Sequence record: PZ242158.1
Strand: one strand, 5' to 3'
Origin: a phage
DNA length: 64,000 nt
Positions 46,006-59,842 of this stretch are shown one piece after another. The notes beneath the pieces were generated by a model that ran no database searches, was not told the DNA's origin, and worked only from the letters and a program-made list of their open reading frames with translations. The position numbers were made by a program, and so were the translations under genes. Within the stretch, counting starts at the first letter, position 1. Each line of letters begins with the position of its first letter.

Positions 46006-46012
46006 GTATGAT

Positions 46013-46348
46013 ATGGTAACATTGGAAAGACGTAAAGCTATCGCCGCCACACTGGCAGACATCTTTTGGGATTGCAATTTAAAAGATACCCGATATTGTG
46101 GCGCATCTGTAGATGCATTATTCCCACGGCCCACTATTGTTGCAATGGGAAACCTGTCAAACGTGGTGTATGGAGCATGGGACAAAGAAGGTGGATTTTA
46201 TATCTGGCAACCTGACTACGGGACCTGGAAAGAGGTAAGGGGTGCGGATGACTTTGGGCCTGCAGTTGCCAAAACGATGGATGGCTGGCAAATTTATGTT
46301 GGAAATGACATGAAGCTGAAAGGCGAGATTGTTTACTGGTTACCTTAA
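46013..46348 (+). CDS. hypothetical protein
   Basis: 111-aa ORF. Confidence 0.4.
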   Translation: MVTLERRKAIAATLADIFWDCNLKDTRYCGASVDALFPRPTIVAMGNLSNVVYGAWDKEGGFYIWQPDYGTWKEVRGADDFGPAVAKTMDGWQIYVGNDMKLKGEIVYWLP

Positions 46349-46368
46349 GAAAGTGCAGGAGATAAAGT

Positions 46369-46614
46369 ATGAACAAAGGGTGGACATTTGTAGACGGCGT
46401 TGAAAACATGCCTCTAGGAAAGTATATTGTAGCCATGGCAGATGAGAATGGTAAGGTAGATTTCGGAGCTTGCGAGATTGTTCTTGCAGGATCTGGTGAC
46501 CATGTGCACAAAACTGGGATAATTAACGGTCATTTCTACTTTGATTACAACCCTGTTGTGGCGTATATGGCTATGCCAGAATTCGAGTTCCCAAAGGAGG
46601 GTGCGGATGTTTAA
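46369..46614 (+). CDS. hypothetical protein
   Basis: 81-aa ORF, SD GCAGGAGA. Confidence 0.4.
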   Translation: MNKGWTFVDGVENMPLGKYIVAMADENGKVDFGACEIVLAGSGDHVHKTGIINGHFYFDYNPVVAYMAMPEFEFPKEGADV

Positions 46615-46804
46615 GCTTAAATCTGCATGGAACATCGCTGTGGGAGACGAGATCCGCATCCCAGGCGGAAAGACAATCATGAAGATATCTCGTATCGAGT
46701 ACGAAGGTGATCGTGTATTCCACATCTTTGCAGAAGATGGTCGAGAAATTTATATACAGGCAGGTTCTCACATTTATATCCGTAAGAAAGGGGACGACAA
46801 ATGA
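46607..46804 (+). CDS. hypothetical protein
   Basis: Start at ATG 46607 after AAAGGAGG. Confidence 0.35.
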   Translation: MFKLKSAWNIAVGDEIRIPGGKTIMKISRIEYEGDRVFHIFAEDGREIYIQAGSHIYIRKKGDDK

Positions 46805-47130
46805 CAGAGATCATCATTTCAACTGCAGGGTATGTGTTCCTGACAATCATTGCACTGACTATTTTGGTTACAGTGTATGGGTTTGTTATCCTTCCTATCC
46901 TTGAGACATTTAGTTTGTGTCGGTGTTGGAGAAAAGCTTACGGGCCACAACCGTGGAAGGACTGGCCTCACCTGGTGCGCTTAGCGTTCTCTTATGCTTA
47001 CGATCACTCTAGCAGTGCATGCATAACCGGATACCACGCCCACAATTGGAGCTGGGAAGGGTTGAGGAAGTGGAATGTTACAAAGACTATACCTCTCCGC
47101 ATGTATAAACCTAAAAACAAAGATAGCTGA
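46801..47130 (+). CDS. membrane protein
   Basis: N-terminal hydrophobic stretch IIISTAGYVFLTIIALTILVTVYGFVILPIL. Confidence 0.4.
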   Translation: MTEIIISTAGYVFLTIIALTILVTVYGFVILPILETFSLCRCWRKAYGPQPWKDWPHLVRLAFSYAYDHSSSACITGYHAHNWSWEGLRKWNVTKTIPLRMYKPKNKDS

Positions 47131-47441
47131 TACTTGAAAATTTCTGGCATATCAAGTATAAGGGGGATTTCTAAAATGGATTTCCTCCTTTTTGATATTT
47201 CACCAGGCCAGATATTTTAAAATTCTTAGAAAATCAGAAAACGGATAGAAAACTAAAATGGATTTTTCAGGGTAGACACGATGAGCTGAGCCACTCATCC
47301 TATCGTTTGCGTCATATTCCGGGCTACCATTCCAGATTTTCCGCGTATGCTCACACCCTTCTACCAGAACTTTCCCACTCGCCCTTGGCCTTTTATGGCA
47401 ATAATCCAGCCACTATCTTGAAGTTGCGGTACAGCTCTCCA

Positions 47442-47529
47442 AGTACTCGATCTGTTTTTCGTTTCAAAGATTGAATTTTCTGAAAATTTTTCTCGATAAA
47501 TTTCTCAGTACTCGATCTGTTTTTCGTTT
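47442..47529. repeat. 23-bp iteron pair in an AT-rich region (candidate replication origin or protein-binding array)
   Basis: AGTACTCGATCTGTTTTTCGTTT at 47442 and 47507, a degenerate third copy near 47560; nearby (C)TAAAATGGATTT x3. Confidence 0.5.
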
Positions 47530-47732
47530 TCTGAATCGGATTTTCTGGAAATCGTTCCAGCTCTCGACCTGAAATTTTTGGGGACGAAATCGATTTTTCG
47601 TTTTCAGAAATGGATTTTTAAAATTTCTATATGGGAATATTTTATGGGATACTGTTTTATAGGAAATTGTTACGGAGGGTAATTAGCATGCTAATTAAAT
47701 TTATTAAATGCGAGGAGTTCTCATTTAGAATT

Positions 47733-47751
47733 TTGAATGATAATCATTCTC
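47733..47751. promoter_or_regulatory. Fur-box-like palindromic operator, site 1
   Basis: ttGAATGATAATCATTCTC matches the Fur consensus GATAATGATAATCATTATC at 15 of 19 positions. Confidence 0.4.
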
Positions 47752-47868
47752 GTTTGCAGAATAACGGGCAGGCCCGGTGATTGTCTCCCGGCCCCTGTTG
47801 CCCCGGCTTGTTATTATAGTATCACACAGGACAAAGAAAGCAAGGATTTTTTGCATAAATTTTTAAAT

Positions 47869-47887
47869 GATAATGATAACCGTTCTC
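47869..47887. promoter_or_regulatory. Fur-box-like operator, site 2
   Basis: GATAATGATAACCGTTCTC matches the Fur consensus at 16 of 19 positions; followed, like site 1, by ..gcag..ccccggtgRttgtctccc. Confidence 0.4.
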
Positions 47888-48406
47888 ATTTTATGCAGCG
47901 CCCATCCCCGGTGGTTGTCTCCCCCGTCACCGGTGCCTGCCGTCCTTTCGATAGGCATATTGTGCCACCTGGCGGGGCCGCTGTCAACACTTCTTCAAAA
48001 ATTTTTTCTAACATAATGCACCAACCGCTGCAACCTGGCGGGGCCAGCCTGGCAGGACCTGACTGACCAGGTAGGAGAGAGTGAAAACTTGCAAACCTGG
48101 TAGGCCTATGCTACAGGGCAGGTAACAATTGAAGAGGAGGTACAAAAATGAAAAGTAATATAATCCCCTGGAAAATGTAGCGATCAACGCCGCTGAAGTT
48201 ATCACCCTGGTTGAAAAGGCTATGGCGGGAGCGTTGGAACATAAAGAAGAGTACGAAAAATGATGGTTAACCTGGCAGGGGCGGCGGCTGGAGAATTCTT
48301 CCCAAAAAATAATTCTAACTAATGGTTGACAGCTCGGAGAGTTCTGTTATTCTTATCCTCGCAAGGTGAACAACACCACACTAATTAACAGAGAGGATAA
48401 AAAATC

Positions 48407-48604
48407 ATGAACGCCTACGGAATTAAAGTACGTCGCAACACTCACCAGGCCGTCACCGATCAAATGGTTTGCCAGGTGGACGTAACCATCAACAACGGGC
48501 AAGGCCTTTATAAATTCCGTCGCGGTCAGAGCTATACCCGGCAACAGCTTAATCGTTGCGCCCTGACAAAAGGCCAGATCAACCACTGGTTTAATAAAAA
48601 ATAA
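48407..48604 (+). CDS. hypothetical small basic protein
   Basis: 65-aa ORF, SD GAGAGGA. Confidence 0.4.
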   Translation: MNAYGIKVRRNTHQAVTDQMVCQVDVTINNGQGLYKFRRGQSYTRQQLNRCALTKGQINHWFNKK

Positions 48605-48607
48605 GTA

Positions 48608-48636
48608 TTGACATATAGTCTGACACCAAATACACT
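48608..48636 (+). promoter_or_regulatory. sigma70-like early promoter
   Basis: TTGACA, 17 nt, TACACT. Confidence 0.55.
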
Positions 48637-48668
48637 AAAAGCACAAAAGACACTAAGAGGATAAAATC

Positions 48669-49067
48669 ATGAAAACCACTACCTTTAATTTTGATAATGC
48701 GGACTTTTCTTTTTCTGATGTCAAGAACTGCCGCCGTGATCGTGGATTTTACAAGGCTTATAATCTGGTGGGCCTGGACGATGACAATAATTTGCACGAA
48801 GTAGCTGAGATCCGGTATTATGCCGCCGCCAGTGGTAACACTCACTACTGCGTGTTTTGGATTCACGACAACAAGAACAATAAGTACGGTTATACTGGCG
48901 GCAAGGCGAGCGGTCACGGTTACGATAAAGCTAACGCAGCACTTGAGAGCGCATTAAATGCTATGGGGATCACTGCCGACGGCTGGATCTACGAAGAAGA
49001 GTTTTTGTCGGCACTTGCTGACCACCTGGGCTATAAAAAGCACATTGTGACATGCGCCCACGAATAA
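48669..49067 (+). CDS. hypothetical protein
   Basis: 132-aa ORF, SD AAGAGGA. Confidence 0.45.
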   Translation: MKTTTFNFDNADFSFSDVKNCRRDRGFYKAYNLVGLDDDNNLHEVAEIRYYAAASGNTHYCVFWIHDNKNNKYGYTGGKASGHGYDKANAALESALNAMGITADGWIYEEEFLSALADHLGYKKHIVTCAHE

Positions 49068-49074
49068 AAATCAT

Positions 49075-49102
49075 TGACACGCTGCAAAATTTAAGTAAAC
49101 TA
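49075..49102 (+). promoter_or_regulatory. sigma70-like early promoter
   Basis: TTGACA, 16 nt, TAAACT; followed by leader hairpin GGCGGGAA-tgt-TTCCCGCC (49113..49131). Confidence 0.5.
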
Positions 49103-49149
49103 GACACAAAAGGCGGGAATGTTTCCCGCCAACACAAAGGAAAAAGATC

Positions 49150-49554
49150 ATGAATAAGAACGTACGCCGCATCATGAATGAACTGGCAAACGATGAAAAA
49201 ATTATTGACATGCATTTGATCAACATTTGCCGCCGTTGTGTAACATATAACAACCGCGCCGCAAAAGCGCGTGAGATGAACGCAAAAGGCACCTTAAAGC
49301 CATTCCAGGTGGTGGTAAAGGCCATTAAAGATGTAACTAATACGGCAAACCAGGTACAGGGGAGCACCAACGAGAGTACCAATATTGATCCGGCTTACAT
49401 CATGAAACGGATCCGGACCTGCAAGAACAAAGAGCAAGTGTATAATGTCATAGACTGGTTGGATTCTATGGGCGATGTGGTGTACAATAGATTCTCTGCA
49501 GCTATTGAGATCCAGCTTGACAGGTTAGACGGTAAAGTACTTAAAACTTACTAA
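49150..49554 (+). CDS. hypothetical protein
   Basis: 134-aa ORF, SD AAAGGAAAAAG. Confidence 0.45.
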   Translation: MNKNVRRIMNELANDEKIIDMHLINICRRCVTYNNRAAKAREMNAKGTLKPFQVVVKAIKDVTNTANQVQGSTNESTNIDPAYIMKRIRTCKNKEQVYNVIDWLDSMGDVVYNRFSAAIEIQLDRLDGKVLKTY

Positions 49555-49559
49555 ATTTA

Positions 49560-49600
49560 TTTTTAGATGGCCTTGACTCCAGGGCCATCAATAAAGTAAA
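49560..49600 (+). repeat. repeated intergenic hairpin element, copy A
   Basis: TTTTTAGATGGCCTTGACTCCAGGGCCATCAATAAAGTAAA; 9-bp stem GATGGCCTT/AGGGCCATC, loop GACTCC; TTGACT in the loop. Confidence 0.6.
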
Positions 49601-49634
49601 TTAATCTCAGCTAAGCGAAAAAGGGGGCTTTAAG

Positions 49635-49754
49635 ATGAGCACTACACGCCAATACACAAAGGTAACTATTATCGCCTGCGTTGTCGGTTACATCCTGGCG
49701 CAAATGTTAATGAGCAGCGCTAACAGTTTTGCAAAATTTTTCTTAAATTTTTAA
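49635..49754 (+). CDS. 39-aa hydrophobic peptide (below ORF-track cutoff)
   Basis: ATG 49635 after AAAGGGGG; MSTTRQYTKVTIIACVVGYILAQMLM... Confidence 0.3.
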   Translation: MSTTRQYTKVTIIACVVGYILAQMLMSSANSFAKFFLNF

Positions 49755-49782
49755 TTGACAAGCTAACTTAGATTGATATACT
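49755..49782 (+). promoter_or_regulatory. sigma70-like early promoter
   Basis: TTGACA, 16 nt, TATACT. Confidence 0.6.
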
Positions 49783-49833
49783 TAAACACGTAAACGGGAA
49801 AACTTCCCAGAGCACACAAAAGGAGAAAACACC

Positions 49834-50175
49834 ATGACTACTATGACCGCCGCAGAAAAAGCTATTCAGATCGCCGCACTGAAAAAACAGATCGCAGACC
49901 TTGAGAACAAGATCGATAACTTTGAAATCGACGAGGACAAGTACGACGAAAACTATGATGAATGGTTAGACGAGATCTACGGCGAAATTATGATCGGAAA
50001 CATTTCTTTTCTTCCGTCGCGTATCCTCAAGGAGCTAGATCCTATCGCTTACCGCTGCGGATTTAGCGACTACATCGACAGCCTGGATATTGAGGACGAT
50101 GAAGAATACCAGGAATTACAGACAGAGTTAGAAGAAGCAAAAGAAGAGCTTGCAGAACTGGAAGAAAACGAGTAA
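49834..50175 (+). CDS. highly acidic small protein
   Basis: 113 aa with long Asp/Glu runs (DEDKYDENYDEWLDE, DIEDDEEYQELQTELEEAKEELAELEENE). Confidence 0.45.
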   Translation: MTTMTAAEKAIQIAALKKQIADLENKIDNFEIDEDKYDENYDEWLDEIYGEIMIGNISFLPSRILKELDPIAYRCGFSDYIDSLDIEDDEEYQELQTELEEAKEELAELEENE

Positions 50176-50180
50176 GATTA

Positions 50181-50221
50181 TTTTTAGATGGCCTTGACTC
50201 CAGGGCCATCAATAAAGTAAA
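50181..50221 (+). repeat. repeated intergenic hairpin element, copy B
   Basis: Identical 41-mer to copy A. Confidence 0.6.
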
Positions 50222-50264
50222 CTTTATACTGTTAACACTGAACTAATGCATAGGAGTTAAAACC

Positions 50265-50510
50265 ATGGCAGCACTAATCACCAAATATTATGCCCCTACC
50301 AACACCAAAAGCGCCCGTATCATGGTAAAAGGCTTCGGACGTAAAAAGGTGTACACCTGGGATTATGCCTTAGACACGGAAGACAACTACACCAACGCGA
50401 TGACCGATTTTATTAATGATCTGAACACGCGGATCTTGACAAATTATAAAATTACCGATATTGCCTATATAGGGGAAGGCGGGATCTGTTTTGTCGGTAT
50501 CGTCAAATAA
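50265..50510 (+). CDS. hypothetical protein
   Basis: 81-aa ORF, SD TAGGAG. Confidence 0.45.
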   Translation: MAALITKYYAPTNTKSARIMVKGFGRKKVYTWDYALDTEDNYTNAMTDFINDLNTRILTNYKITDIAYIGEGGICFVGIVK

Positions 50511-50514
50511 GCTG

Positions 50515-50556
50515 TTTTTTCGGTGGTCCTGGTAGCAGGGCCATCTATAAAGATAG
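50515..50556 (+). repeat. repeated intergenic hairpin element, variant copy D
   Basis: TTTTTTCGGTGGTCCTGGTAGCAGGGCCATCTATAAAGATAG; 3' arm identical to other copies, 5' arm has two transitions (A>G, C>T) that keep pairing only as G-U wobbles. Confidence 0.5.
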
Positions 50557-50585
50557 TTTATCAATACAATGAAAGGAGAAAGTAC

Positions 50586-50939
50586 ATGATCAGCGGGGCA
50601 AGTTTTATTATTGGCGCTATTGCTACGGCTTTAATTGTAAACAAGATCCAATCTAAAAACGAAAAAGATAGCAACGCCCTTACAGAATACCCGTTTTGGG
50701 TATTCAACGACAATGAAGACTATATTATCAAGTACAAGAATGAGAAGGGCGACCAGGTAACACCGCGACCGATCCCGGCTTACAAGATGCAAGAAACACT
50801 ATACCGCCTAAAGGCTGGAGGCGCAAAAATCGTAGACTTTTGGGGATACGATCACACAGATCAGGAAGTTATAAAGCGCCGTATCCGGGCTATTCAGGCC
50901 AATATTGAAGTTAGCAAGGGGGGAATATATGAAGATTAA
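50586..50939 (+). CDS. membrane protein
   Basis: Start at ATG 50586 after GAAAGGAGAAAG; N-terminal hydrophobic helix ISGASFIIGAIATALIV. Confidence 0.4.
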   Translation: MISGASFIIGAIATALIVNKIQSKNEKDSNALTEYPFWVFNDNEDYIIKYKNEKGDQVTPRPIPAYKMQETLYRLKAGGAKIVDFWGYDHTDQEVIKRRIRAIQANIEVSKGGIYED

Positions 50940-51126
50940 TTTTGAGAAGATTGTAAAGCGATCTCATGCTTCCGAAGAGCTGCCGGAACGCCGCCAGCGC
51001 AACAATAAACTGAATAAGCCAAAAAGATTTGGGAAGATCTGGCGAAATCATTATGATCGCAAATTACCGGGCCTGCTTTTGGAACGTGAACGACAGGCGG
51101 AACGATACCGCCACAAAGGCAAATAA
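50929..51126 (+). CDS. small basic protein
   Basis: Start at ATG 50929 after AAGGGGGGAA; Lys/Arg-rich. Confidence 0.35.
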   Translation: MKINFEKIVKRSHASEELPERRQRNNKLNKPKRFGKIWRNHYDRKLPGLLLERERQAERYRHKGK

Positions 51127-51134
51127 CAACCAAC

Positions 51135-51160
51135 GCCCCGCCATTGTGCGGGGCTTTTTA
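51135..51160 (+). terminator. intrinsic terminator
   Basis: GCCCCGC-cattgt-GCGGGGC + TTTTTATTT. Confidence 0.6.
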
Positions 51161-51307
51161 TTTCTATCCTACGAATAGCGCCCCCGGTTGGCCCTGTAAG
51201 CGCCAAAAAGGCCCCACCTATGCAATCGCCCCCCTTTAACCTGAAAACATCGCTTAGGGCCGTTTTATGGCGTTAAAAATATCATTGACAGTGATTTTAT
51301 TTAAAGC

Positions 51308-51335
51308 TTGACATCTTAAACAGGTTAGCTATACT
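51308..51335 (+). promoter_or_regulatory. sigma70-like early promoter
   Basis: TTGACA, 16 nt, TATACT. Confidence 0.55.
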
Positions 51336-51367
51336 AACCACATCAAAGAGAGAAAGGAGTAAACGCC

Positions 51368-51628
51368 ATGCGTAAATTAAAAAATTTTGATAAAGTTGAT
51401 GTTGTCCTGAATAATTTTTACTACTGCAACAACAAGGCCATTTGGTGGCGTGATAGTTCCACCGATAAAGTTAAAGCTCGCTTTCTCCAAGGGCACTGGC
51501 AAGGCCGTCCAGTGATTAAAATACTGGGGCAACTGGTAGCGTTTAAAAATTGCCGCCGTGTTGATGACGTTGAAGAGATCTTGAACATTTTACGCCACAA
51601 TAATTTAAAAAATAGTGTTGACAAGTAA
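51368..51628 (+). CDS. hypothetical protein
   Basis: 86-aa ORF, SD AAAGGAG. Confidence 0.45.
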   Translation: MRKLKNFDKVDVVLNNFYYCNNKAIWWRDSSTDKVKARFLQGHWQGRPVIKILGQLVAFKNCRRVDDVEEILNILRHNNLKNSVDK

Positions 51629-51645
51629 ATCTCGATAAGTATACT
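51618..51645 (+). promoter_or_regulatory. sigma70-like early promoter
   Basis: TTGACA, 16 nt, TATACT; followed by leader hairpin GGCGGGAAAACTTCCCGCC (51656..51674). Confidence 0.6.
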
Positions 51646-51702
51646 TAAACACACAGGCGGGAAAACTTCCCGCCACTAACAAAGAAAATAGGAGAAAATA
51701 TC

Positions 51703-52326
51703 ATGACCACCGTTAACATTACCACAGGTTACAATTTATCTTTCGACGTGCTGACCGACGAACAAAAAGAAAAAGCTATTGAAATGGTCCGCGAAAGAGA
51801 AGAACACAGCGGGGATAATTTTTTTGCAGAAAGTGTAATTGAACACTATAAAGAATATGTCTTTCCAGAGTACGGCCTTGAAGATACCGAAGTACGTTGG
51901 TCCGGCTTTTGGTGTCAAGGCGATGGCGCGTCAATCAGTGCTGAAAACGTGGATTTAGAAAAATTCTTGCGTAAAGTAAAGGCCCTGACCAAGTTCCGAT
52001 CAATTCGTCACTTGTTCGGCACAATGCACGATGGCGAGTTATCAGCCAGTGTTGAACGTATCCCGTTTAGCCATTATCATCACGAAAACACAATAGGAGG
52101 GTGCATCGATACTAATTGGCTAGACCTGACCACCAAGCAAGAGGACAAAGTTGAAGAGCTGGAAGAGCTGATCACCGAGACGGTACGGGAGCTATCCCGC
52201 AAGGTTTACGTAGACCTGGAGGAGGCCTATCTTGAACAGTTTACTACCGAAAACCTGATCGGCCTTATTGAAGCCAATGATTGGCGGTTTGATGTGGATG
52301 AATATGGGGAGATGAGTTTTTCATAA
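51703..52326 (+). CDS. hypothetical acidic protein
   Basis: 207-aa ORF, SD TAGGAGAAAA. Confidence 0.45.
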   Translation: MTTVNITTGYNLSFDVLTDEQKEKAIEMVREREEHSGDNFFAESVIEHYKEYVFPEYGLEDTEVRWSGFWCQGDGASISAENVDLEKFLRKVKALTKFRSIRHLFGTMHDGELSASVERIPFSHYHHENTIGGCIDTNWLDLTTKQEDKVEELEELITETVRELSRKVYVDLEEAYLEQFTTENLIGLIEANDWRFDVDEYGEMSFS

Positions 52327-52334
52327 ATAAAGTG

Positions 52335-52362
52335 TTGCAATAATCTAAAAACCTGCTATATT
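52335..52362 (+). promoter_or_regulatory. sigma70-like early promoter
   Basis: TTGCAA, 16 nt, TATATT; followed by leader hairpin GGGGCGAG...TTGCCCC (52373..52392). Confidence 0.5.
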
Positions 52363-52416
52363 AAAAACTCAAGGGGCGAGATGACTTGCCCCCCACAAAA
52401 CAAAGAGGAAAACATC

Positions 52417-52797
52417 ATGAAAAACACTACTAAAGCTATTGACACCGTTATGTTTAACCTGGTTACATTCCGTGAAGATATGAAAGATCTTCCACGTGAA
52501 ACAGTGTGCGACCATATCGAAAACTATCGCAAACTAATCAAAGAGTTGCCTTTAAAACGTGACCAGTACGCGGCTAACGCTATGCTTAACGCCATGATCA
52601 AAAAGATGATCCAGTGTGATTTAACTCTGGCCTATGATTATGCAGGCGGTCGTTTTGCAGTATACAATCAGCCCGTGCCCGGTATGAGCACCACCGAAGA
52701 ATTGCACGCGTTAAATCTGAAACAAGATGTATGGGATAACATGCCCCGCGTGGTGGTGTGGGCAGAAAGCGGAAAGATTTACGGCGATAATTTTTAA
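52417..52797 (+). CDS. hypothetical protein
   Basis: Start at ATG 52417 after AAGAGGAAAA. Confidence 0.45.
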   Translation: MKNTTKAIDTVMFNLVTFREDMKDLPRETVCDHIENYRKLIKELPLKRDQYAANAMLNAMIKKMIQCDLTLAYDYAGGRFAVYNQPVPGMSTTEELHALNLKQDVWDNMPRVVVWAESGKIYGDNF

Positions 52798-52861
52798 TCA
52801 GGTAACAGGCGGCATATTTGCCGCCTTATTGTTAAACAGAACTGCAAAAGAGGTACATAGA

Positions 52862-53233
52862 ATGGAATTTATTATTTTGGCTGTAGTAGTTGCCTTGTTC
52901 AACGCCTGGATCGCTGGCAAGATGGGTAGATCCGCTTTTTTATGGTTTATTATATCTATTTTCCTGGGGGTGGTTGCAACTATTGTACTTGTTATCCTTG
53001 CAATTGTTGACAAGGGGAATAATAGAAAGGGTAAAGTATTTTCAGACCTGTACGACGCTCAAACATTTGTCAACGCCTACTACAGCGATCTTCCAGTCTC
53101 CCTACGTTGCAGCCTTGCACAACAGGTTTTCGATGAAGCTAAAACCAGAGATCACGCCCATGAGATTTGTTTAACTGAGGCGGATCGCCTATTTGAGAGG
53201 AATAGAAAATATGTGGACCAGCCGTTTAAATAA
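52862..53233 (+). CDS. membrane protein
   Basis: Start at ATG 52862 after AAGAGG; two hydrophobic helices (FIILAVVVALFNAWIA, FLWFIISIFLGVVATIVLVILAIV). Confidence 0.4.
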   Translation: MEFIILAVVVALFNAWIAGKMGRSAFLWFIISIFLGVVATIVLVILAIVDKGNNRKGKVFSDLYDAQTFVNAYYSDLPVSLRCSLAQQVFDEAKTRDHAHEICLTEADRLFERNRKYVDQPFK

Positions 53234-53432
53234 TGCCACGTTAATTAACCCCTTTAGTGAAGATTTGAAGCCAGCCGCCTGGCGGGATGGATTCAATAAC
53301 GAAAGCTTTATTTTCAGGCCTGATCTTAAGGAATTTTATAACAATGGATCGAACAACGACAGAGATAATTTTTCTTGTAATGTGCGTGGTGATAATACTC
53401 CTGGGAGCCATTGCAAACCACGTCACTGCTAA
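53211..53432 (+). CDS. hypothetical small protein (weak)
   Basis: ATG 53211 after GAGAGGAA; overlaps end of upstream gene. Confidence 0.25.
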   Translation: MWTSRLNNATLINPFSEDLKPAAWRDGFNNESFIFRPDLKEFYNNGSNNDRDNFSCNVRGDNTPGSHCKPRHC

Positions 53433-53452
53433 CAGGAGGAAAGGGGGAGACG

Positions 53453-53572
53453 ATGACACCCAAGGATAAGCCCCGCACCGATAAGGCGCGCCGTGTTATG
53501 GTATGGCTTGAGATCATCGCCCTTGAAATATTGTTAGGCGTAGGGATGTATTTTATCGCTGTAAGTAATTGA
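53453..53572 (+). CDS. 39-aa membrane peptide (below ORF-track cutoff)
   Basis: ATG 53453 after AGGAGGAAAGGGGGAG; hydrophobic VMVWLEIIALEILLGVGMYFIAV. Confidence 0.35.
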   Translation: MTPKDKPRTDKARRVMVWLEIIALEILLGVGMYFIAVSN

Positions 53573-53576
53573 TAAC

Positions 53577-53615
53577 GGCCCCGATCCCTGGGGCCTAACT
53601 TTTCAAATTTTTTTT
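53577..53615 (+). terminator. intrinsic terminator
   Basis: GGCCCC-gatccct-GGGGCC followed by TAACTTTTCAAATTTTTTTTC. Confidence 0.5.
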
Positions 53616-53626
53616 CTCCCTGAGTG

Positions 53627-53655
53627 TTGCAATCCGATCCAGAATATGGATAATA
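53627..53655 (+). promoter_or_regulatory. sigma70-like early promoter
   Basis: TTGCAA, 17 nt, ATAATA; shares core AATATGGATAATAA with the promoter at 54791; followed by hairpin GGGGAG-aca-CTCCCC. Confidence 0.5.
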
Positions 53656-53713
53656 ACAATCAACGGGGAGACACTCCCCACCGCATAGACAAAGTTCCAA
53701 AAGGAGAAACAAA

Positions 53714-53914
53714 ATGAGCAACAATATCCGCGTTATTAACTTCAAAAAAGAAGAAAAAATTGCCGTGCTGATTGACGGTCAAGAAATCTTTAAAGGTGAT
53801 TATGAAGATCATCAAACGGCGATTAGTATCACTCGCGTGATTGGTTACCATAATTTTTACCCTCAAGGCGCTGAGGCAGCAGTAAAACTAATTAAAGAGA
53901 TTGTAGGCCTGTAA
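53714..53914 (+). CDS. hypothetical protein
   Basis: 66-aa ORF, SD AAAGGAGAAA. Confidence 0.45.
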   Translation: MSNNIRVINFKKEEKIAVLIDGQEIFKGDYEDHQTAISITRVIGYHNFYPQGAEAAVKLIKEIVGL

Positions 53915-53920
53915 AATTTA

Positions 53921-53961
53921 TTTTTAGATGGCCTTGACTCCAGGGCCATCAATAAAGTAAA
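53921..53961 (+). repeat. repeated intergenic hairpin element, copy C
   Basis: Identical 41-mer to copies A and B. Confidence 0.6.
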
Positions 53962-54005
53962 TTTAAACCCTGTTAAAATAATCAGTGCAAAAAGGAGTAA
54001 TGATC

Positions 54006-54305
54006 ATGTTTATCCAGGCTAATAATCTTTATTTCTTTGATGGTCAGATCGTAGACGGCGTGGAGGTGGAAATCACCGGGTGCCCTGGCGGTCAGGTTAT
54101 GACTTTTCGGAATAATGCCTTTGATGATTCTCATATCGTTATGAGAATGGAAGTTAGTAAGCTGGATGACAAGAAAACACTCATTGATTATTCCGTGAAA
54201 GATCATCCAGACTACCACATGATCTATGGTGATTTGTGCATTGTTGACCGTGACAAGGTGGGCGGCATTGTGATCGCTATTGTGAACGATGTTTTCTCAA
54301 ACTAA
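54006..54305 (+). CDS. hypothetical protein
   Basis: Start at ATG 54006, 8 nt after AAAGGAG. Confidence 0.4.
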   Translation: MFIQANNLYFFDGQIVDGVEVEITGCPGGQVMTFRNNAFDDSHIVMRMEVSKLDDKKTLIDYSVKDHPDYHMIYGDLCIVDRDKVGGIVIAIVNDVFSN

Positions 54306-54322
54306 TTTCAGCAGGTGATTTT

Positions 54323-54673
54323 ATGAAAGTAAAACTATATTACCTTAATGAGCTTAACCCCCTTGCCCAGGTCCGCGCCCTGGCTAATACCTTGATTTGT
54401 GAGAAATCTGTATATTGTGTTGAGCTTAACTCCATGCGTGAACGTCTCAAAGGTGGTTACTTTGACATCCATGCTGCAATCAACGGCCTGAATATGGAAT
54501 TTATCCGCTTACGTAACAGCCGCCAGAATCTGGCAAGAATGGAACAAGATCCGGCCCACCTTCGTAAGCTGGTTATTGAAAATCATCTAATGTTTAATGC
54601 CGATGGTGATTATTACCATTTTCACCGTAAACGCTGGTACCGTAGCGGCAATATAGGAAAGAATGCAAAATAA
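54323..54673 (+). CDS. hypothetical basic protein
   Basis: 116-aa ORF. Confidence 0.4.
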   Translation: MKVKLYYLNELNPLAQVRALANTLICEKSVYCVELNSMRERLKGGYFDIHAAINGLNMEFIRLRNSRQNLARMEQDPAHLRKLVIENHLMFNADGDYYHFHRKRWYRSGNIGKNAK

Positions 54674-54708
54674 GGCCCCTGGCAGGGCCTGCAGCGATAT
54701 AATCACAT

Positions 54709-54742
54709 AAAGGCTATGCGGTTGCATAGCCTTTATTATTTT
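54709..54742 (+). terminator. intrinsic terminator
   Basis: AAAGGCTATGC-ggtt-GCATAGCCTTT (11-bp stem) + ATTATTTTGG. Confidence 0.6.
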
Positions 54743-54790
54743 GGCGTTACAGCGGCCCCCAAGGCGCTTAAAAAATTTTTAAAGAAGTAC

Positions 54791-54819
54791 TTGCATCAAG
54801 TCCTACAATATGGATAATA
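54791..54819 (+). promoter_or_regulatory. sigma70-like early promoter
   Basis: TTGCAT, 17 nt, ATAATA. Confidence 0.5.
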
Positions 54820-54879
54820 AAGGGTGTCGGGGGGCGGTGAGGCCTCCAATCATTAACCGGATAGATAGGAGTTAAAACC

Positions 54880-55164
54880 ATGGCTATTGTTACCGTTGGC
54901 GATGTAGTAGAAATGGAAGCCAAATACTTAAAAGCTGGTATGCATATCATACGGAATGATCAAGAATTGTTATTAACCATGGTTGAATATAATCCCGGTC
55001 AGGATTATCCAAGCATTGACTACTTTTTCCAGTATGTTGATGAAGAATTAAAAGAGGATGAGGCTTATCAGGGTGAATTTTGTAATTTCTTTTGCCCTGA
55101 TGAGGTTGTAAAAGTTATCTATCAACCTGGCGTACCTTTCCCGCTGCACGCTATCAACAAATAA
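54880..55164 (+). CDS. hypothetical protein
   Basis: 94-aa ORF, SD TAGGAG. Confidence 0.45.
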   Translation: MAIVTVGDVVEMEAKYLKAGMHIIRNDQELLLTMVEYNPGQDYPSIDYFFQYVDEELKEDEAYQGEFCNFFCPDEVVKVIYQPGVPFPLHAINK

Positions 55165-55219
55165 ACCTGGCGGGGCCGAAAAGGCCCCCAATTATGAAAA
55201 TAAAGAGAGGCAAATCATC

Positions 55220-55453
55220 ATGATGGAACAAATTAAACGCGCCGAGGCTATTAATGGCAACGTGATCTATTTTGTCAGCAAAAACGAAAAAGGCGTACCC
55301 TATGCGGCGGTAATAGTACAGCCTGACGGCGATTATTGGTGTACTGTGTACGGCGCTTATTCTTTTGGGCGTCCAGTGCATGATAAAATTTTGAAAGTAG
55401 CGAACCCTACCGGGAAAAATATCACAGCAGAAAAATTTTTTGAAAATAGTTGA
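55220..55453 (+). CDS. hypothetical protein
   Basis: 77-aa ORF, SD AAAGAGAGG; leader hairpin GGGGCC-gaaaa-GGCCCC upstream. Confidence 0.45.
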   Translation: MMEQIKRAEAINGNVIYFVSKNEKGVPYAAVIVQPDGDYWCTVYGAYSFGRPVHDKILKVANPTGKNITAEKFFENS

Positions 55454-55477
55454 CATGACCATATAAGACTGTAGTAT
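55450..55477 (+). promoter_or_regulatory. sigma70-like early promoter
   Basis: TTGACA, 16 nt, TAGTAT; followed by leader hairpin GGGGC-aa-GCCCC. Confidence 0.5.
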
Positions 55478-55524
55478 ATAAATCAAAGGGGCAAGCCCCA
55501 CCAACCACAAAGAGGATAAAAATC

Positions 55525-55704
55525 ATGGCTATTATTGCAAAGACTGAGATCGTAGGCTTGGATTCTATTCTCCTCGCATATGAGGAAGCTATAGAAATGT
55601 ATGTGGTTTCCTATGGTGAGTATATCCGTGAATATAAATCTATTGATCTGGCTTTTGAATGTTATATTCGCCAGGTTAATAAAGCGTACGATGATTATCG
55701 TTAA
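55525..55704 (+). CDS. 59-aa hypothetical protein (below ORF-track cutoff)
   Basis: ATG 55525 after AAAGAGGATAAAAATC. Confidence 0.35.
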   Translation: MAIIAKTEIVGLDSILLAYEEAIEMYVVSYGEYIREYKSIDLAFECYIRQVNKAYDDYR

Positions 55705-55794
55705 AATAGTTTGAAAACAAACAACCATCTTACAAAGCATAATACATAAGGCGGTGGAATGGTCCGCCACCTGGAACAAGAAGAGGAAAACAAA

Positions 55795-55899
55795 ATGAAA
55801 CAGAAATTAATTGATGCGGTGATCCTGGTTATTGCCCTGGGTATTGGCCTGATTGCAACCATGGCTAATGTGATCTTGTCTTCCAACGGTATCGGGTGA
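55795..55899 (+). CDS. 34-aa membrane peptide
   Basis: ATG 55795 after AAGAGGAAAA; hydrophobic DAVILVIALGIGLIATMANVIL; leader hairpin upstream. Confidence 0.3.
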   Translation: MKQKLIDAVILVIALGIGLIATMANVILSSNGIG

Positions 55900-55908
55900 G
55901 GTTGGCAA

Positions 55909-56124
55909 ATGATCACTAACAAAACAGGCAAAACGGAATTTTTACGCAACTTACAGATCGGCAAGCCTGAGATCTGGTATTGCACTAAAACACCACGTGA
56001 CGAAATGAAAGACTTCACCGCCACGCTGCAACGGGTAAAGATATCCATCACGCAGAAAAAGGCCTTGATAGTGGTGGAAGGTGAGATCCCTCAAACCGTT
56101 GTTATAGTTGAGCGTACAGCATAG
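55909..56124 (+). CDS. hypothetical protein
   Basis: 71-aa ORF. Confidence 0.35.
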   Translation: MITNKTGKTEFLRNLQIGKPEIWYCTKTPRDEMKDFTATLQRVKISITQKKALIVVEGEIPQTVVIVERTA

Positions 56125-56215
56125 TTTAATTTATACCGATACCCGAAAATTAACCAACAAAGCATAAACAGGCGGTTACCGCCGCCTTAAACGTAGCAGA
56201 AAGAGGATAGACACA

Positions 56216-56500
56216 ATGAAAAAGATGATCGCAGTGGTTGCCCTGGTTGTTGGACTTAATGCGCCTGTAATGGCTAAAGAGCTGGCAAAAGAGGTTGATC
56301 TAACGGATATCCATGCCGTCAATCAAATCGGGGTTACTTATCGCTTATGCCTTGCCGCTAAAACTTTTAATGACGGCACAACAGAGTACTACGGATTCGA
56401 GGGTATCCGGTGCGGTGAGCTTGCTCGCGACCTTAAGGAAGATCCAGACCTGGAAGATCTGCCCATCACCGTAAACGGTAAAGCTTACGTAAACCGTTAA
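56216..56500 (+). CDS. secreted small protein
   Basis: Signal-peptide-like MKKMIAVVALVVGLNAPVMA; SD AAGAGGA; leader hairpin AGGCGG...CCGCCT upstream. Confidence 0.45.
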   Translation: MKKMIAVVALVVGLNAPVMAKELAKEVDLTDIHAVNQIGVTYRLCLAAKTFNDGTTEYYGFEGIRCGELARDLKEDPDLEDLPITVNGKAYVNR

Positions 56501-56502
56501 CC

Positions 56503-56640
56503 ATGAGAAAGATAATCATCACCTTGGGGATTGTGGCGGGATCGCTGGCGCTCTTTCTCCTTATGGTTAGGTATGTGCTGATCGGTATTGTCCTGGTAGT
56601 CAGTGATCTATTGGAAACGGTTGGCACCTTGTTTTAAAGA
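56503..56640 (+). CDS. 45-aa membrane peptide
   Basis: ATG 56503; IIITLGIVAGSLALFLLMVRYVLIGIVLVV. Confidence 0.3.
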
Positions 56641-56649
56641 GCGGTAAAA

Positions 56650-56841
56650 ATGAATATCGAACAAGTTAGAAAGGTATTGGCGGTACTGCGTTATCATAAT
56701 CATAGAAAGGTCATAGACGATCCTGATTATGTCGATTCAAGCCTGGAAGGGGATACACTACAAGCCATAAGTAATATGCAAGAATTGCTAAAGCGCATGA
56801 CAGAGAAAAACCGACCGGACTACATAGGCGAAAAAATATAA
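56650..56841 (+). CDS. hypothetical protein
   Basis: 63-aa ORF. Confidence 0.4.
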   Translation: MNIEQVRKVLAVLRYHNHRKVIDDPDYVDSSLEGDTLQAISNMQELLKRMTEKNRPDYIGEKI

Positions 56842-56856
56842 TCCTTATAAACTACA

Positions 56857-56887
56857 AAACAGGGCTTGCAATGGTCCTGTTTTTTTG
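56857..56887 (+). terminator. intrinsic terminator
   Basis: ACAGGGC...GTCCTGT hairpin + TTTTTTTG. Confidence 0.55.
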
Positions 56888-56970
56888 TTATACTTGTTTC
56901 ACGGCAGGCACCTGGCGACGGGGGGAGACAATCACCGGGTGTGCCTGCTATATAAAAACTATAAAAACCG

Positions 56971-56999
56971 TTGACATCTGCCAGGTGCTGGGGTAGCAT
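56971..56999 (+). promoter_or_regulatory. sigma70-like early promoter
   Basis: TTGACA, 17 nt, TAGCAT. Confidence 0.5.
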
Positions 57000-57054
57000 T
57001 TATCTCGAAGGGGGCAAAAGCGCCCACACAACAACCGGAAGAGAGGAAAACGCC

Positions 57055-57327
57055 ATGTTAAGCTGGATTAACCAAGAAGTTGAATCACGTTTTAATGCTA
57101 TTTGGGATCTCATCGAAAAAGAAGACGGCACATCAAGCCCCTACCTCAACAATTTGGAATTCCATTTTGTGGAAGCGATGAACGCAGAACATGATCACGA
57201 AGGTGGCGCGGATGAGTTCGCTAAAGGTTATGGCTTTAACAATGCCAACGAAATGATCGAGGCGGTAGTACTCCAGGCTGAGGAAGATTATCAATTAAAA
57301 ACGCTTGAATTCTGCCGCCGCAAGTAA
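57055..57327 (+). CDS. hypothetical acidic protein
   Basis: Start at ATG 57055 after AGAGAGGAAAA. Confidence 0.45.
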   Translation: MLSWINQEVESRFNAIWDLIEKEDGTSSPYLNNLEFHFVEAMNAEHDHEGGADEFAKGYGFNNANEMIEAVVLQAEEDYQLKTLEFCRRK

Positions 57328-57389
57328 TAAGATAATGACACGGGCCAAAAGGCCCACTAAACAAAAACCACATAAAGAGGAAAAACATC

Positions 57390-57653
57390 ATGAAACGCCT
57401 TGATCAGCTCAAATTAGTTCAATATATGGCTTATCGTGTTCTTGAAGTCCAGAAAGGTAGCAAAAAAGAGGTTTGCGAGAAAGCTTATAAGATCTTCACT
57501 CGCAAAAAAGATGACTGGATGCTACGCCAGACCAAAAAGGCTGACATCTTGGGGTACCTGGAAGAAGAGATCCGACTTGAAGAGCAAGAAGAGATCCGCC
57601 GTAGTGAGGCAGATTATCAGGCAGCTTGGGAAAACTGGATGAGCAACAAATAA
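57390..57653 (+). CDS. hypothetical protein
   Basis: 87-aa ORF, SD AAAGAGGAAAAA; leader hairpin GGGCC-aaaa-GGCCC upstream. Confidence 0.45.
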   Translation: MKRLDQLKLVQYMAYRVLEVQKGSKKEVCEKAYKIFTRKKDDWMLRQTKKADILGYLEEEIRLEEQEEIRRSEADYQAAWENWMSNK

Positions 57654-57718
57654 TACAACAAGGTGCACGGTCAGGGGCTTAAAGCCCCTTGATCACATAA
57701 AAATTATGCTATCCCTGG

Positions 57719-57747
57719 TTGACAGGGATCGGCAGTTTTGCTATATT
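57719..57747 (+). promoter_or_regulatory. sigma70-like early promoter
   Basis: TTGACA, 17 nt, TATATT. Confidence 0.55.
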
Positions 57748-57796
57748 CTTTTTTGAAGGGAAGTTGTAAGAAAATTAACTAAGAGGTAAAAACACC

Positions 57797-58216
57797 ATGA
57801 ACATTAAATCTAATAATCCGGCATATAGCTTTGATAACGCTTTTTGTCACGGTCCGGCGGCGAAAGGATTCGAAATCGATGGTAAACTAATTATTGTCAA
57901 TGTTGACGGGGAAGAGGTTGCAGTATATCCGGTGGCAGACGTAAAAAGCCGTTTACAATGCCGCATGGATGTTACCGCCTATCAGCTTGATCCGGTCCGC
58001 ATAGTTGCCCTGGTCCTGGAAGAAGAAATTAAAGCCATGCACCATAGCAACAGGTTTATTGGTGACGCTCAGGATAATATGAAGGTGTGCCGCCATAAAG
58101 TTAATGAAGTGCTTAAAGAGTACGGCTATAAAGATCTTATGATCAAACGTGATGAAAAATTCCGGTACCGTAACGACCTGGCAAATCGGATTTTTGAAAT
58201 ATACGAATCATTATAA
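57797..58216 (+). CDS. hypothetical protein
   Basis: 139-aa ORF, SD TAAGAGGTAAAAA. Confidence 0.45.
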   Translation: MNIKSNNPAYSFDNAFCHGPAAKGFEIDGKLIIVNVDGEEVAVYPVADVKSRLQCRMDVTAYQLDPVRIVALVLEEEIKAMHHSNRFIGDAQDNMKVCRHKVNEVLKEYGYKDLMIKRDEKFRYRNDLANRIFEIYESL

Positions 58217-58234
58217 TTTTTTAACTGAATTATC

Positions 58235-58259
58235 AAGGGGCTTAGGTCCCTTTCTTTTT
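58235..58259 (+). terminator. intrinsic terminator ending the + strand early array
   Basis: AAGGGGC-ttag-GTCCCTT + TCTTTTT. Confidence 0.5.
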
Positions 58260-58870
58260 GTCTGCTCTTCCTCCCTACCATAAACGGCCCTACCTGGCAA
58301 GTGGAATAATTGACGAGCCATCAATCCCACACACTGTACAAATATACATGTAAAATAACTATTGCATAACCTTTCATTGTGTGGTAGCGGTGCTATTTTT
58401 ACCCGTTTTCCTTCCAAAATTGCACGTAATGCAGCTATTGCACAAAATTTAACCTGATGCGCATCTTCAATATCTTGTCAACAACTAAAAATCTTTATAA
58501 GTCATACACTTACACAAACCAAAAAGCGTGTTCTACGTGAAAAATCGAGTATAACTATAGCCGACAGATCTCAGAATTTACGTACGCTCACCATTCTATA
58601 GCCTGCTAAGTATTTATTCCGACCATAGAATAACAGAATAGTCAATACCTGCATAAAATAATTATTCGTTTAAATTGCATAACATAAATCAGCTCAGGTG
58701 TCAACATTTTTCGTAAACAGTCTGAAATTGTCACGGCAAGTTATCATAATCAGAGAAATCTTTAGTCGTCTAATGTTTACTGTACGTTACTATACTAACT
58801 GGAATCATTAGATGACTAATAGAAAGATAAGAAATAATTAACAATACAATTATTTTATCTGTAACAATAA

Positions 58871-59044
58871 GGCAACTATGCAAACGAATGGCATGGCGCG
58901 ACGGAGTCGCGACATAATATAAAAGCAGTAACCATCACCCCCGTGATAGTTTGTCTGCAATCTATTAATCAGATCATAGTTGCCTTGTATTTAGTTAATC
59001 ATGACATAACAAGCAAGGCAACTATAGATCTTCTAATAGTTGCC
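58871..59044. repeat. array of inverted 9-bp half-sites GGCAACTAT/ATAGTTGCC (operator- or centromere-like)
   Basis: Half-sites at 58871 (+), 58976 (-), 59017 (+), 59036 (-); the last pair forms a palindrome with a 10-bp spacer; 20-mer ATGCAAACGAATGGCATGGC repeated at 58878 and 59150. Confidence 0.45.
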
Positions 59045-59282
59045 CTGCTTTTATATTATGTCATATATTATTAACTTGTTAATTGTTAGTCAGTCAAATC
59101 AACAGCGTTATCATTTCAGTCTTTATTGTTGTTGATCGTTATTGTTATCATGCAAACGAATGGCATGGCTTATCATCTCTGTATAAACAGTTTATGCGTG
59201 AACAGTGAGGCATGCAATAGTAACAATTGTTATTGTGTCATCATGTCAAGGGTAAAGTGTCATAGTATGTCAGACATGTTTT

Positions 59283-59716
59283 TCCCCTCTTTGTCAAGTG
59301 CTGCATGAAAAAATTTACAAGCTGGTATGGTAGCATTTTTGCGGCCTTGTTTACATTCAGGAGTGTATGTATAATCCTTGTTGTGTGGGCGTTTATACGT
59401 CTGGACGGTCAGAAGTCTGCAGGTTAATATCTAATCTATTGGCTGCTAACTATATCCCACACAAATGATAAGAAATATAATTGTTATATGCGTAAACTGT
59501 AACTCATGTTATCAATCCCTGTATGTATCGCCAGTGGTGCGCATAATGGGTATTATGTTAAATTGCCCGTAATGATAACAGTTCTCACAATGATAGGTAT
59601 TCTCATTCATCCACACAAAATAGGTTGCAAATGTTGTGCCACTGTGTGAACGGCCTGGCCTATTAATTTCTCTCACTGCCTCGATATTTGAGAATTGTTA
59701 TAAGAATGAGAAGTAT
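59283..59716. repeat. 434-bp perfect direct repeat, copy 1
   Basis: Identical by eye to 59843..60276 over the full 434 bp; contains a promoter-like TTGTTT, 17 nt, TATAAT. Confidence 0.8.
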
Positions 59717-59842
59717 CCATGTTTATATTACATCTACTTGGTTCAGAACCAAAATGCGCGAAAGCGTTTCACGATAACTAGCGACCACGGTCTGTTCCCT
59801 GGCGGCCATACGGCTTCTACTGAACGCAGCAGAGGGCGATAA

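Follow-up and report, generated by a model that had tools for sequence, protein, structure and literature searches.

Between 48407 and 58216 of a 64,000-nucleotide (nt) stretch of phage DNA (record PZ242158.1; hereafter the window), small genes on the plus strand are interspersed with two families of repeated intergenic cassettes. Our favoured account, which we hold to be probable rather than firm, is that this array is a hyperplastic block of early ORFan genes, that its two portable cassette families are analogues of the PeSL (promoter-early stem-loop) cassettes of T4-like phages, and that the GC hairpin of the main family, class A, acts as a 5′ stabiliser of the transcript and an insulator of the ribosome-binding site.

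On nucleotide identity, the source is an rV5-like Vequintavirus, an Escherichia coli myovirus: positions 48400–58216 are 99.4% identical to Escherichia phage rV5_ev156, and nearly all of the 236 phage records matched are Vequintavirus. The array forms the distal end of a long plus-strand transcription unit that starts near 21–22 kb (rIIB, helicases, primase, DNA polymerase); 3′ of its last gene (57797–58216) lie a non-coding gap and then a convergent gene block. An earlier reading made from the letters alone (the sequence-only reading) had counted about 25 small genes here. Mapping of the rV5_ev156 annotation onto the window gave 27, and a 44-amino-acid (aa) open reading frame (ORF) at 56503, annotated in rV5 and WalterGehring, brings the total to 28:

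48407–58216 (+): array of 28 small genes, 34–207 aa
Gene starts 1–14 (+): 48407, 48669, 49150, 49635, 49834, 50265, 50586, 50929, 51368, 51703, 52417, 52862, 53211, 53453
Gene starts 15–28 (+): 53714, 54006, 54323, 54880, 55220, 55525, 55795, 55909, 56216, 56503, 56650, 57055, 57390, 57797

The equivalent in the rV5 reference record (NC_011041) comprises ORFs 164–196, every one hypothetical, with six annotated sigma70 promoters (P195B, P195A, P192, P186, P168 and P164); genome-wide, the rV5 paper lists 33 promoters and 20 terminators (Kropinski et al. 2013, PMC3606486). A text search of that paper, together with the GenBank features, returned no account of a hairpin-leader unit, of the class-B repeat described below or of a gene-shuffling role.

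Class A is present in seven copies in the array, each with the same order of parts: a promoter (TTGACA or TTGCAA, 16–17 nt, TAnnnT), a GC hairpin, a CA/A-rich leader, a AAGAGGAAAA-type Shine–Dalgarno (SD) sequence and ATG.

49074–49149 (+): TTGACA-16-TAAACT (49074–49101), hairpin 49112–49130, A/C-rich leader and SD, gene 49150; covariance model, 40.2 bits
49755–49833 (+): TTGACA-16-TATACT (49755–49782), weaker hairpin 49796–49808, leader and SD, gene 49834; 23.9 bits, outside the seed alignment
51618–51702 (+): TTGACA-16-TATACT (51618–51645), hairpin 51656–51674, leader and SD, gene 51703; promoter scan, covariance model
52335–52416 (+): TTGCAA-16-TATATT (52335–52362), hairpin 52373–52392, leader and SD, gene 52417; promoter scan, covariance model
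53627–53713 (+): TTGCAA-16-GATAAT (53627–53654), hairpin 53665–53679, leader and SD, gene 53714; promoter scan, covariance model
55450–55524 (+): TTGACA-16-TAGTAT (55450–55477), hairpin 55488–55499, leader and SD, gene 55525; promoter scan, covariance model
56971–57054 (+): TTGACA-17-TAGCAT (56971–56999), hairpin 57012–57025, leader and SD, gene 57055; promoter scan, covariance model

The promoters of the seven class-A and three of the class-B units match the sigma70 consensus at 9–11 of 12 positions. Class-A stems are 4–9 bp of GC sequence, and their placement is constant: the gap between −10 box and hairpin is 10–12 nt in six of the seven cassettes and 14 nt in the seventh. Across 73 distinct cassettes, the hairpin starts at the 11th nt past the −10 box in 31 and at the 10th to 13th in 51. 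This fixed start about 11 nt past the −10 box, predicted to be about +5 of the transcript, and the missing U-tract make the earlier proposal of a hairpin at the mRNA 5′ end plausible. The T count in the 8 nt after the hairpin is 0–1 for the seven class-A copies and 0–3 for all 11 leader hairpins, below what an intrinsic-terminator U-tract contains. The leaders are A-rich, as had been claimed: between hairpin and ATG the composition is 55% A, 19% C, 17% G and 8% T, compared with 32/20/23/25% for the region. Strong SD sequences (duplex of −5 kcal/mol or stronger) precede 25 of the 28 genes, again in line with the earlier description. For the 50-nt segments upstream of the SD in the 21 intergenic regions that measure 50 nt or more, the summed minimum free energy was −194 kcal/mol, compared with −119 ± 9.5 kcal/mol in dinucleotide shuffles (z = −8, 0/500).

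All ten hairpins listed in the sequence-only reading were found at their coordinates, among them four that head a leader and SD and have no recognisable promoter:

55172–55219 (+): hairpin 55172–55188, leader and SD, gene 55220; stem kept in 11 relatives
55750–55794 (+): hairpin 55750–55771, leader and SD, gene 55795; decayed promoter (TTGAAA, 21-nt spacer)
56171–56215 (+): hairpin 56171–56183, leader and SD, gene 56216; from reading of the intergenic region
57342–57389 (+): hairpin 57342–57355, leader and SD, gene 57390; from reading of the intergenic region

At the 55750 unit, two relatives have TTGACA-17-CATAAT where the window has TTGAAA and a 21-nt spacer, a comparison that suggests that promoters decay and reappear while the hairpin persists.

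A covariance model was built with 22 copies as seed, spanning the −10 box, the gap and the hairpin and reaching into the leader. Run over the 64 kb with filters off, it gave eight matches, all on the plus strand: seven within 49096–57039, including one at 49777 that was not in the seed, and one at 30685. The last marks the sole class-A cassette outside the array:

30662–30729 (+): TTGACT-17-TAAGAT, 12-nt gap, then GGGGAGGCACTCCTCCCC

An E-value scan of 44000–60000 with Rfam 15 yielded no family at its gathering score. The one match, Clostridium-PBP RNA at 52348–52419, overlaps a class-A cassette and scored 33 bits where the gathering score is 94 (E = 0.37); we took it as chance.

The class-A family extends beyond the window. 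Across 16 sources, 88 of 89 covariance-model matches were on the gene strand, and six unrelated phage loci gave no match. In the Phapecoctavirus ESCO13 (Stephanstirmvirinae), about 20 of 30 small genes carry a class-A unit, more uniform than in the window and consisting of a TAA stop, an A-rich tract, TTGACA-16-TAnnnT, GTATCACATAG, a GGGCGG... hairpin, leader and SD; the model found 24 matches in 9.4 kb of this phage. The cassette is also present in phage A7_1, from another Vequintavirinae lineage. Blastn with one ESCO13 cassette matched 141 records, all from Stephanstirmvirinae or Vequintavirinae; genomes of Phapecoctavirus, Justusliebigvirus and some vequintaviruses each held several copies. 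It returned nothing from T4-like phages, and so gave no indication of common descent with their cassettes. By these matches, the class-A family is common to Phapecoctavirus, Justusliebigvirus and another Vequintavirinae lineage, and the occurrence of phapecoctavirus-type cassettes in some vequintaviruses points to exchange of whole modules between the subfamilies.

Comparison of relatives indicates what has been kept. Among 11 relatives, none of the 42 columns of the −35 hexamers varies, compared with 29 of 113 in the promoter spacers (Fisher 4e-5). Hairpin stems vary in 18 of 136 columns and loops in 19 of 42 (Fisher 4e-5), with loops drifting, for example, from TGT to ACA or from AAAA through GAAA to GGGA. 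Among the 73 distinct copies, 47 cells had changed on both sides of the stem, compared with 26 ± 5 in shuffles, and the covariation score was 0.196 against at most 0.062 in slid controls, for an alignment that was fitted to the structure by the model and mixes paralogues with orthologues. ESCO13 orthologues carry other stems at the same position; before the gene for the 94-aa secreted protein, for instance, GGCGG/CCGCC corresponds to GGGGCG/CGCCCC. As judged from these patterns, the −35 box and stems of class A are under purifying selection; by its model matches, the unit is specific to the gene strand.

The second family, class B, is absent from the sequence-only reading. It is a 50-nt repeat with three copies that are 94–100% identical and one degenerate copy; its 10-bp hairpin encloses a TTGACT −35 box. 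The loop base differs among phages (T, A, C or G) and the stem is invariant.

49553–49602 (+): class-B copy 1, hairpin GATGGCCTTG/CAGGGCCATC around −35 TTGACT, −10 TAAATT; 5′ of gene 49635
50174–50223 (+): class-B copy 2, 94% identical to copy 1; 5′ of gene 50265
50509–50558 (+): class-B copy 3, degenerate, 68% identical, hairpin retained and −35 box gone; 5′ of gene 50586
53914–53963 (+): class-B copy 4, 100% identical to copy 1; 5′ of gene 54006

Promoter-like sites are in excess throughout the array. A scan found 43, compared with 26.5 ± 5.4 in shuffles; 31 were on the plus strand, and sites matching at least 10 of 12 positions numbered ten on the plus and one on the minus strand. Independent sigma70-type promoters, as first proposed, are plausible, with −35 hexamers that stay invariant in the 11 relatives while spacers vary. 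Such promoters are read by host RNA polymerase, and the genes would therefore be early. The view that nearly every gene has its own promoter did not hold: sites that match 9 or more of 12 positions precede about 14 of the 28 genes, and no promoter could be recognised in seven of the intergenic regions that reach 50 nt. Likewise, seven promoters are indeed followed by a hairpin, but to say that most are was an overstatement. The other strong promoters of the window have short leaders and no hairpin:

48326–48353 (+): TTGACA-16-TATTCT, gene 48407, no GC leader hairpin; annotated as P195B in rV5
48608–48636 (+): TTGACA-17-TACACT, gene 48669, unstructured leader; annotated as P195A in rV5
51308–51335 (+): TTGACA-16-TATACT, gene 51368; promoter scan
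57719–57747 (+): TTGACA-17-TATATT, last gene 57797; annotated as P164 in rV5

Hairpins of another kind lie behind genes, four of them with the T-rich tail of an intrinsic terminator:

51135–51163 (+): intrinsic terminator, GC hairpin and TTTTTATTT, after gene 50929; U-tract present
54707–54742 (+): intrinsic terminator, 13-bp hairpin and T-rich tail (TTATTATTTT), after gene 54323; preceded by hairpin 54673–54690
56856–56887 (+): intrinsic terminator, hairpin and T7, after gene 56650; U-tract present
57673–57689 (+): hairpin AGGGGCTTAAAGCCCCT, after gene 57390; recombination partner of hairpin 58235
58235–58260 (+): terminator at the array end, AAGGGGCTTAGGTCCCTT and TCTTTTTG; U-tract present

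The U-tract terminators at 51135 and 56856 are located 5′ of the next promoter; the class-A hairpin is always 3′ of its own.

We read the junctions of gene gain and loss at nucleotide level from block alignments of relatives. Six junction types emerged: leader/leader (twice), −35/−35, hairpin/hairpin and class B/class B (twice). In rV5, an extra gene lies between duplicated leader copies ACTAAnCAnAACCACAnAAAGAG at window 57366–57383; in JLBYU08, another lies between repeated leader/SD copies at 55775–55807. In the IMG/VR contig L004, an insert of 540 nt is joined at a duplicated ‘ATTGACA’ −35 box, and the window retains a relic second TTGACA at 51286–51291, 22 nt 5′ of the −35 box of the 51308 promoter. 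This relic is best read as the scar of a −35/−35 crossover that removed the 540-nt segment kept in L004. Gene 57797 is gone from EdH4 and from the IMG/VR contig L003, with the junction in the similar hairpins 57673 and 58235. Contig L003 has also lost genes 49635–50175 through a crossover of class-B copies 1 and 2, and 241Ecol014PP has lost gene 50265 through a crossover of copies 2 and 3; the two class-B deletions are independent of each other. In 241Ecol014PP, moreover, 55455–56853 is replaced by one gene with an ESCO13-type cassette, the left breakpoint falling exactly at the −35 box of the 55450 promoter, and the same hot spot in EdH4 holds a gene described by its annotators as identical to ESCO13_00009. 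The crossovers that could be mapped fall for the most part in a leader/SD, a −35 box or a class-B unit and not in class-A stems. At the resolution of these alignments, cassette elements are the crossover points of gene insertion, deletion and swap, and the stretch appears to be a PeSL-like hyperplastic region with cassettes as its breakpoints.

As a separate observation at the 55.4–56.9 kb hot spot, 241Ecol014PP (locus L019, 8216–8497) and EdH4 (locus L012, 8705–8896) carry phapecoctavirus-type cassettes (GTATCACGTAGGGCGGCAATGGTGCCGCTC) with a foreign small gene.

Stem-loops at the 5′ terminus stabilise E. coli mRNAs, as work of the Belasco laboratory on the ompA leader established, and T7 class III transcripts start with a stem-loop. 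RNase E and RppH depend on the 5′ end, and a hairpin placed there should slow decay. Host RNA polymerase would start about 7 nt past the −10 box, so that the class-A hairpin would begin at about +5, 2–5 nt from the 5′ end, and would shield the transcript from 5′-end-dependent decay (RppH/RNase E). The U-poor, A/C-rich leader, unable to pair with itself and offering few U-containing cleavage sites, would leave the SD open whatever is upstream, and small genes would be expressed strongly and independently of where the module lands. Promoter-less hairpins may do the same job on read-through or processed RNA. We read the leader hairpins as likely transcript stabilisers and insulators, not terminators, because they come after their own promoter, lack a U-tract and run into leaders poor in U and rich in A and C.

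Several observations count against this account. The location of the class-A hairpin at +5 is itself a prediction. Four of the hairpins (55172, 55750, 56171 and 57342) have no recognisable promoter in this genome and are conserved nonetheless; one orthologous cassette in A7_1 has no hairpin; and a hairpin is no general requirement, because other promoters of the window do without one. Two-sided compensatory changes were absent among the close orthologues of the 11 relatives, where divergence is too low for them, and variant pair types there were compatible in six cases and disruptive in nine, some of the latter being alignment shifts. Folding energy did not differ between the plus and minus strands of the 73 cassettes (−12.0 versus −11.8 kcal/mol, p = 0.92), and a sense-strand role at the RNA level is therefore not demonstrated. 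In the EdH4 record, terminators are annotated at several of these hairpins, with the counterparts of 49112 and 55488 labelled as putative ones, and an RB49 PeSL stem-loop without an obvious U-tract cut lacZ expression as much as rrnB T1 did (PMC2839356).

The last two points favour a different interpretation, in which the hairpins are terminators or attenuators that damp read-through from upstream cassettes and each gene is driven mainly by its own promoter. It would also suit the four hairpins that come after a stop codon with no promoter between, and the class-B hairpin, which directly follows stop codons. Yet the seven class-A hairpins, and some 20 in ESCO13, lie at a fixed distance 3′ of their own −10 box, where a terminator would kill its own transcript, and the 0–1 T that follow them contrast with the T-runs at the genuine terminators 51135, 54707, 56856 and 58235; we judge this interpretation unlikely. 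Nor do we give much credence to hairpins devoid of RNA function, whether as repeated DNA that spreads with gene modules or as recombination hot spots at the DNA level (cruciforms). The breakpoints of insertions and deletions do fall in cassettes, the strands do not differ in folding energy and the near-identity of the ESCO13 copies is what recent spread or gene conversion would produce. But stems are conserved while loops drift, pairing and position are kept where stem sequences differ between cassettes and orthologues, and the mapped crossovers mostly avoid class-A stems, all of which makes a DNA-only origin improbable.

Two further alternatives seem to us very improbable. In one, a dimeric DNA-binding protein encoded by the phage would recognise the palindromes as operators and, bound at about +5 to +22, switch off early promoters. 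In its favour, GGCGGGAA-N3-TTCCCGCC forms a perfect inverted repeat at a position where a bound repressor can serve as a roadblock, and the ESCO13 copies are uniform in sequence. Against a common operator stand at least seven unrelated stem sequences of 4–9 bp in the window, G–T wobble pairs in 17 hairpins and family searches that found no DNA-binding protein among the array proteins. Alternatively, the hairpins might terminate antisense transcription entering from the downstream genes, which converge on the array; T/G-rich tracts follow several hairpins on the minus strand, and a terminator scan flags 49130, 51674, 53683 and 56187 (−). The T-rich tail, however, is the mere complement of an A-rich sense transcript start, and this explanation leaves the fixed −10 box distance and the link to the SD unaccounted for. 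The equivalent minus-strand tail in ESCO13, CTATGTGAT, is not T-rich, and we rejected antisense termination as the main role on that ground. RNase III processing sites were likewise rejected, as the stems are merely 4–10 bp.

Stabilisation by the class-A hairpin, our preferred reading, has a more speculative extension. Adjoining the divergent promoter region is a gene for a 347-aa protein:

20038–21081 (−): 347-aa protein; PHROGs HNH endonuclease (4e-110), ‘decoy of host sigma70’ (5e-14) and ‘Srd anti-sigma factor’ (2e-9)

This protein corresponds to gp11 of the rV5 paper, where it is noted as Srd-like (PMC3606486), and T4 Srd activates RNase E on host mRNA according to Qi et al. 2015, as cited in PMC4980113. 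The 5′ hairpin and U-depleted leader might thus form a phage ‘self’ mark that spares early transcripts from RNase E while the Srd-like protein drives host mRNA decay, the unit being at the same time a context-independent module that moves small genes between two myovirus subfamilies. We offer this combined proposal tentatively, as conceivable and on balance doubtful.

The products of the array say little about function. Searches of all 28 proteins against Pfam, PHROGs, PADLOC and NCBIfam gave a single functional family match, PF08200 (T7 gp1.1, function unknown), to a basic 65-aa protein of the T7 gene 1.1 family encoded at 50929–51126 (+) (2.3e-10; also the only Pfam match of the array). In the largest product, of 207 aa, the motif WSGFWxQGDGA is conserved; AlphaFold modelled this protein confidently, with a predicted fold that had no neighbour among solved structures, and an IMG/VR search for relatives of its gene returned two vequintavirus contigs only. 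The suggestion of a host-takeover or anti-defence island was not borne out, in that the 28 proteins gave no match to any family with a known role in anti-defence or takeover, though such a function need not show as homology. Other parts of the sequence-only reading fared better. The very acidic 113-aa protein (49834) has an isoelectric point of 4.1, the secreted protein (56216) is 94 aa long and begins with a signal-peptide-like segment, and four hydrophobic peptides of 34–44 aa were confirmed from translations where at least four membrane peptides had been claimed. Their ORFs, missing from the ORF track on which that reading relied, are already annotated in related GenBank records. Seven array genes overlap the gene upstream or sit within 20 nt of it.

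Several smaller features were seen in and around the array. The hydrophobic 44-aa ORF at 56503–56637 (+) has no SD and begins 2 nt past the stop of gene 56216, and for these reasons it is probably translated by coupling; the gene is missing from JLBYU08. An exact 20-nt repeat, ATAGGAGTTAAAACCATGGC, at 50250–50269 and 54865–54884 covers the SD, start codon and second codon of the unrelated genes 50265 and 54880. Directly 5′ of the array, in a gap of about 600 nt without annotated genes, three repeats of 47–51 nt (47433–47618; spacing 65–74 nt, 74–80% identical) include one that overlaps a long AT-rich hairpin (47574–47611). In the largely non-coding gap between the array end and the convergent block, 59283–59582 and 59843–60142 are the two copies of a perfect 300-nt direct repeat, at a distance of 560 nt; seven related loci, several of which may end short of that part of the genome, had no exact match to a 60-mer taken from the repeat.

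If our account is right, ‘plug-and-play’ cassettes of the PeSL type are not confined to T4-like phages and would represent a convergent solution by which large virulent myoviruses carry, express and exchange small accessory genes. It would also pinpoint where therapeutic rV5-like and phAPEC8-like phages gain and lose genes, and annotators should then treat these hairpins as probably not terminators. The cassettes would provide compact natural promoter–5′ untranslated region (UTR) modules for strong, context-insulated expression in E. coli, and evasion of RNase E would connect mRNA architecture with phage control of host RNA decay.

As for precedents, the rV5 annotation (PMC3606486; NC_011041) covers the same gene array, with six of its promoters already marked. 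The ompA 5′ UTR and the T7 class III (phi10) leader share with class A a stable hairpin near the mRNA 5′ end (predicted here) and, after it, a strong SD reached through an unstructured leader rich in A/U or A/C. They differ in that 5′ ends have been mapped and half-lives measured there, both of which are predicted here, and T7 class III transcripts come from the phage polymerase, whereas the promoters here are of sigma70 type.

The closest parallel is with the PeSL cassettes of the T4-like phage pairs RB49/phi1, PST/T4 and nt-1/KVP40 (Arbiol et al. 2010, PMC2839356; Comeau et al. 2014, PMC4122927). In both systems the repeated intergenic unit combines a GC stem-loop with a promoter of sigma70 consensus, leads by way of an SD to a start codon, and stands 5′ of small ORFan genes in variable regions. 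The stem-loop positions known from PeSLs include those over the −35 box (class B here) and 3′ of the −10 box (class A here). In RB49/phi1, differential ORFans are flanked by cassettes and excision leaves one chimeric cassette (PMC2839356); here, too, genes that differ between close relatives are cassette-flanked and deletions leave a single chimeric cassette. As in PeSLs, the copies are many and clustered in a variable region, with seven class-A units, four promoter-less hairpin leaders and four class-B units in 9 kb and one class-A unit in the other 54 kb. There are also differences. The lineages here are Vequintavirinae and Stephanstirmvirinae, not T4-like, and show no blastn similarity to T4-like phages, so that the likeness is one of architecture and homology is not demonstrated. 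The main class here has its hairpin fixed 3′ of the −10 box, whereas those of phi1/RB49 mostly overlap the −10 box or fall in the spacer between it and the −35 box. For RB49, experiments have demonstrated both terminator activity and mini-circles; the cassettes here are known from sequence, and terminator activity is unlikely for class A. Literature searches returned no transcriptome or cassette description for rV5-like or phAPEC8-like phages. Thus, the cassettes appear to be a known kind of element, PeSL-like, in a new phage lineage and not a new system; what seems new relative to the literature searched is that these cassette families exist, that their geometry is fixed, that two subfamilies have them and that they serve as the junctions of insertions and deletions.

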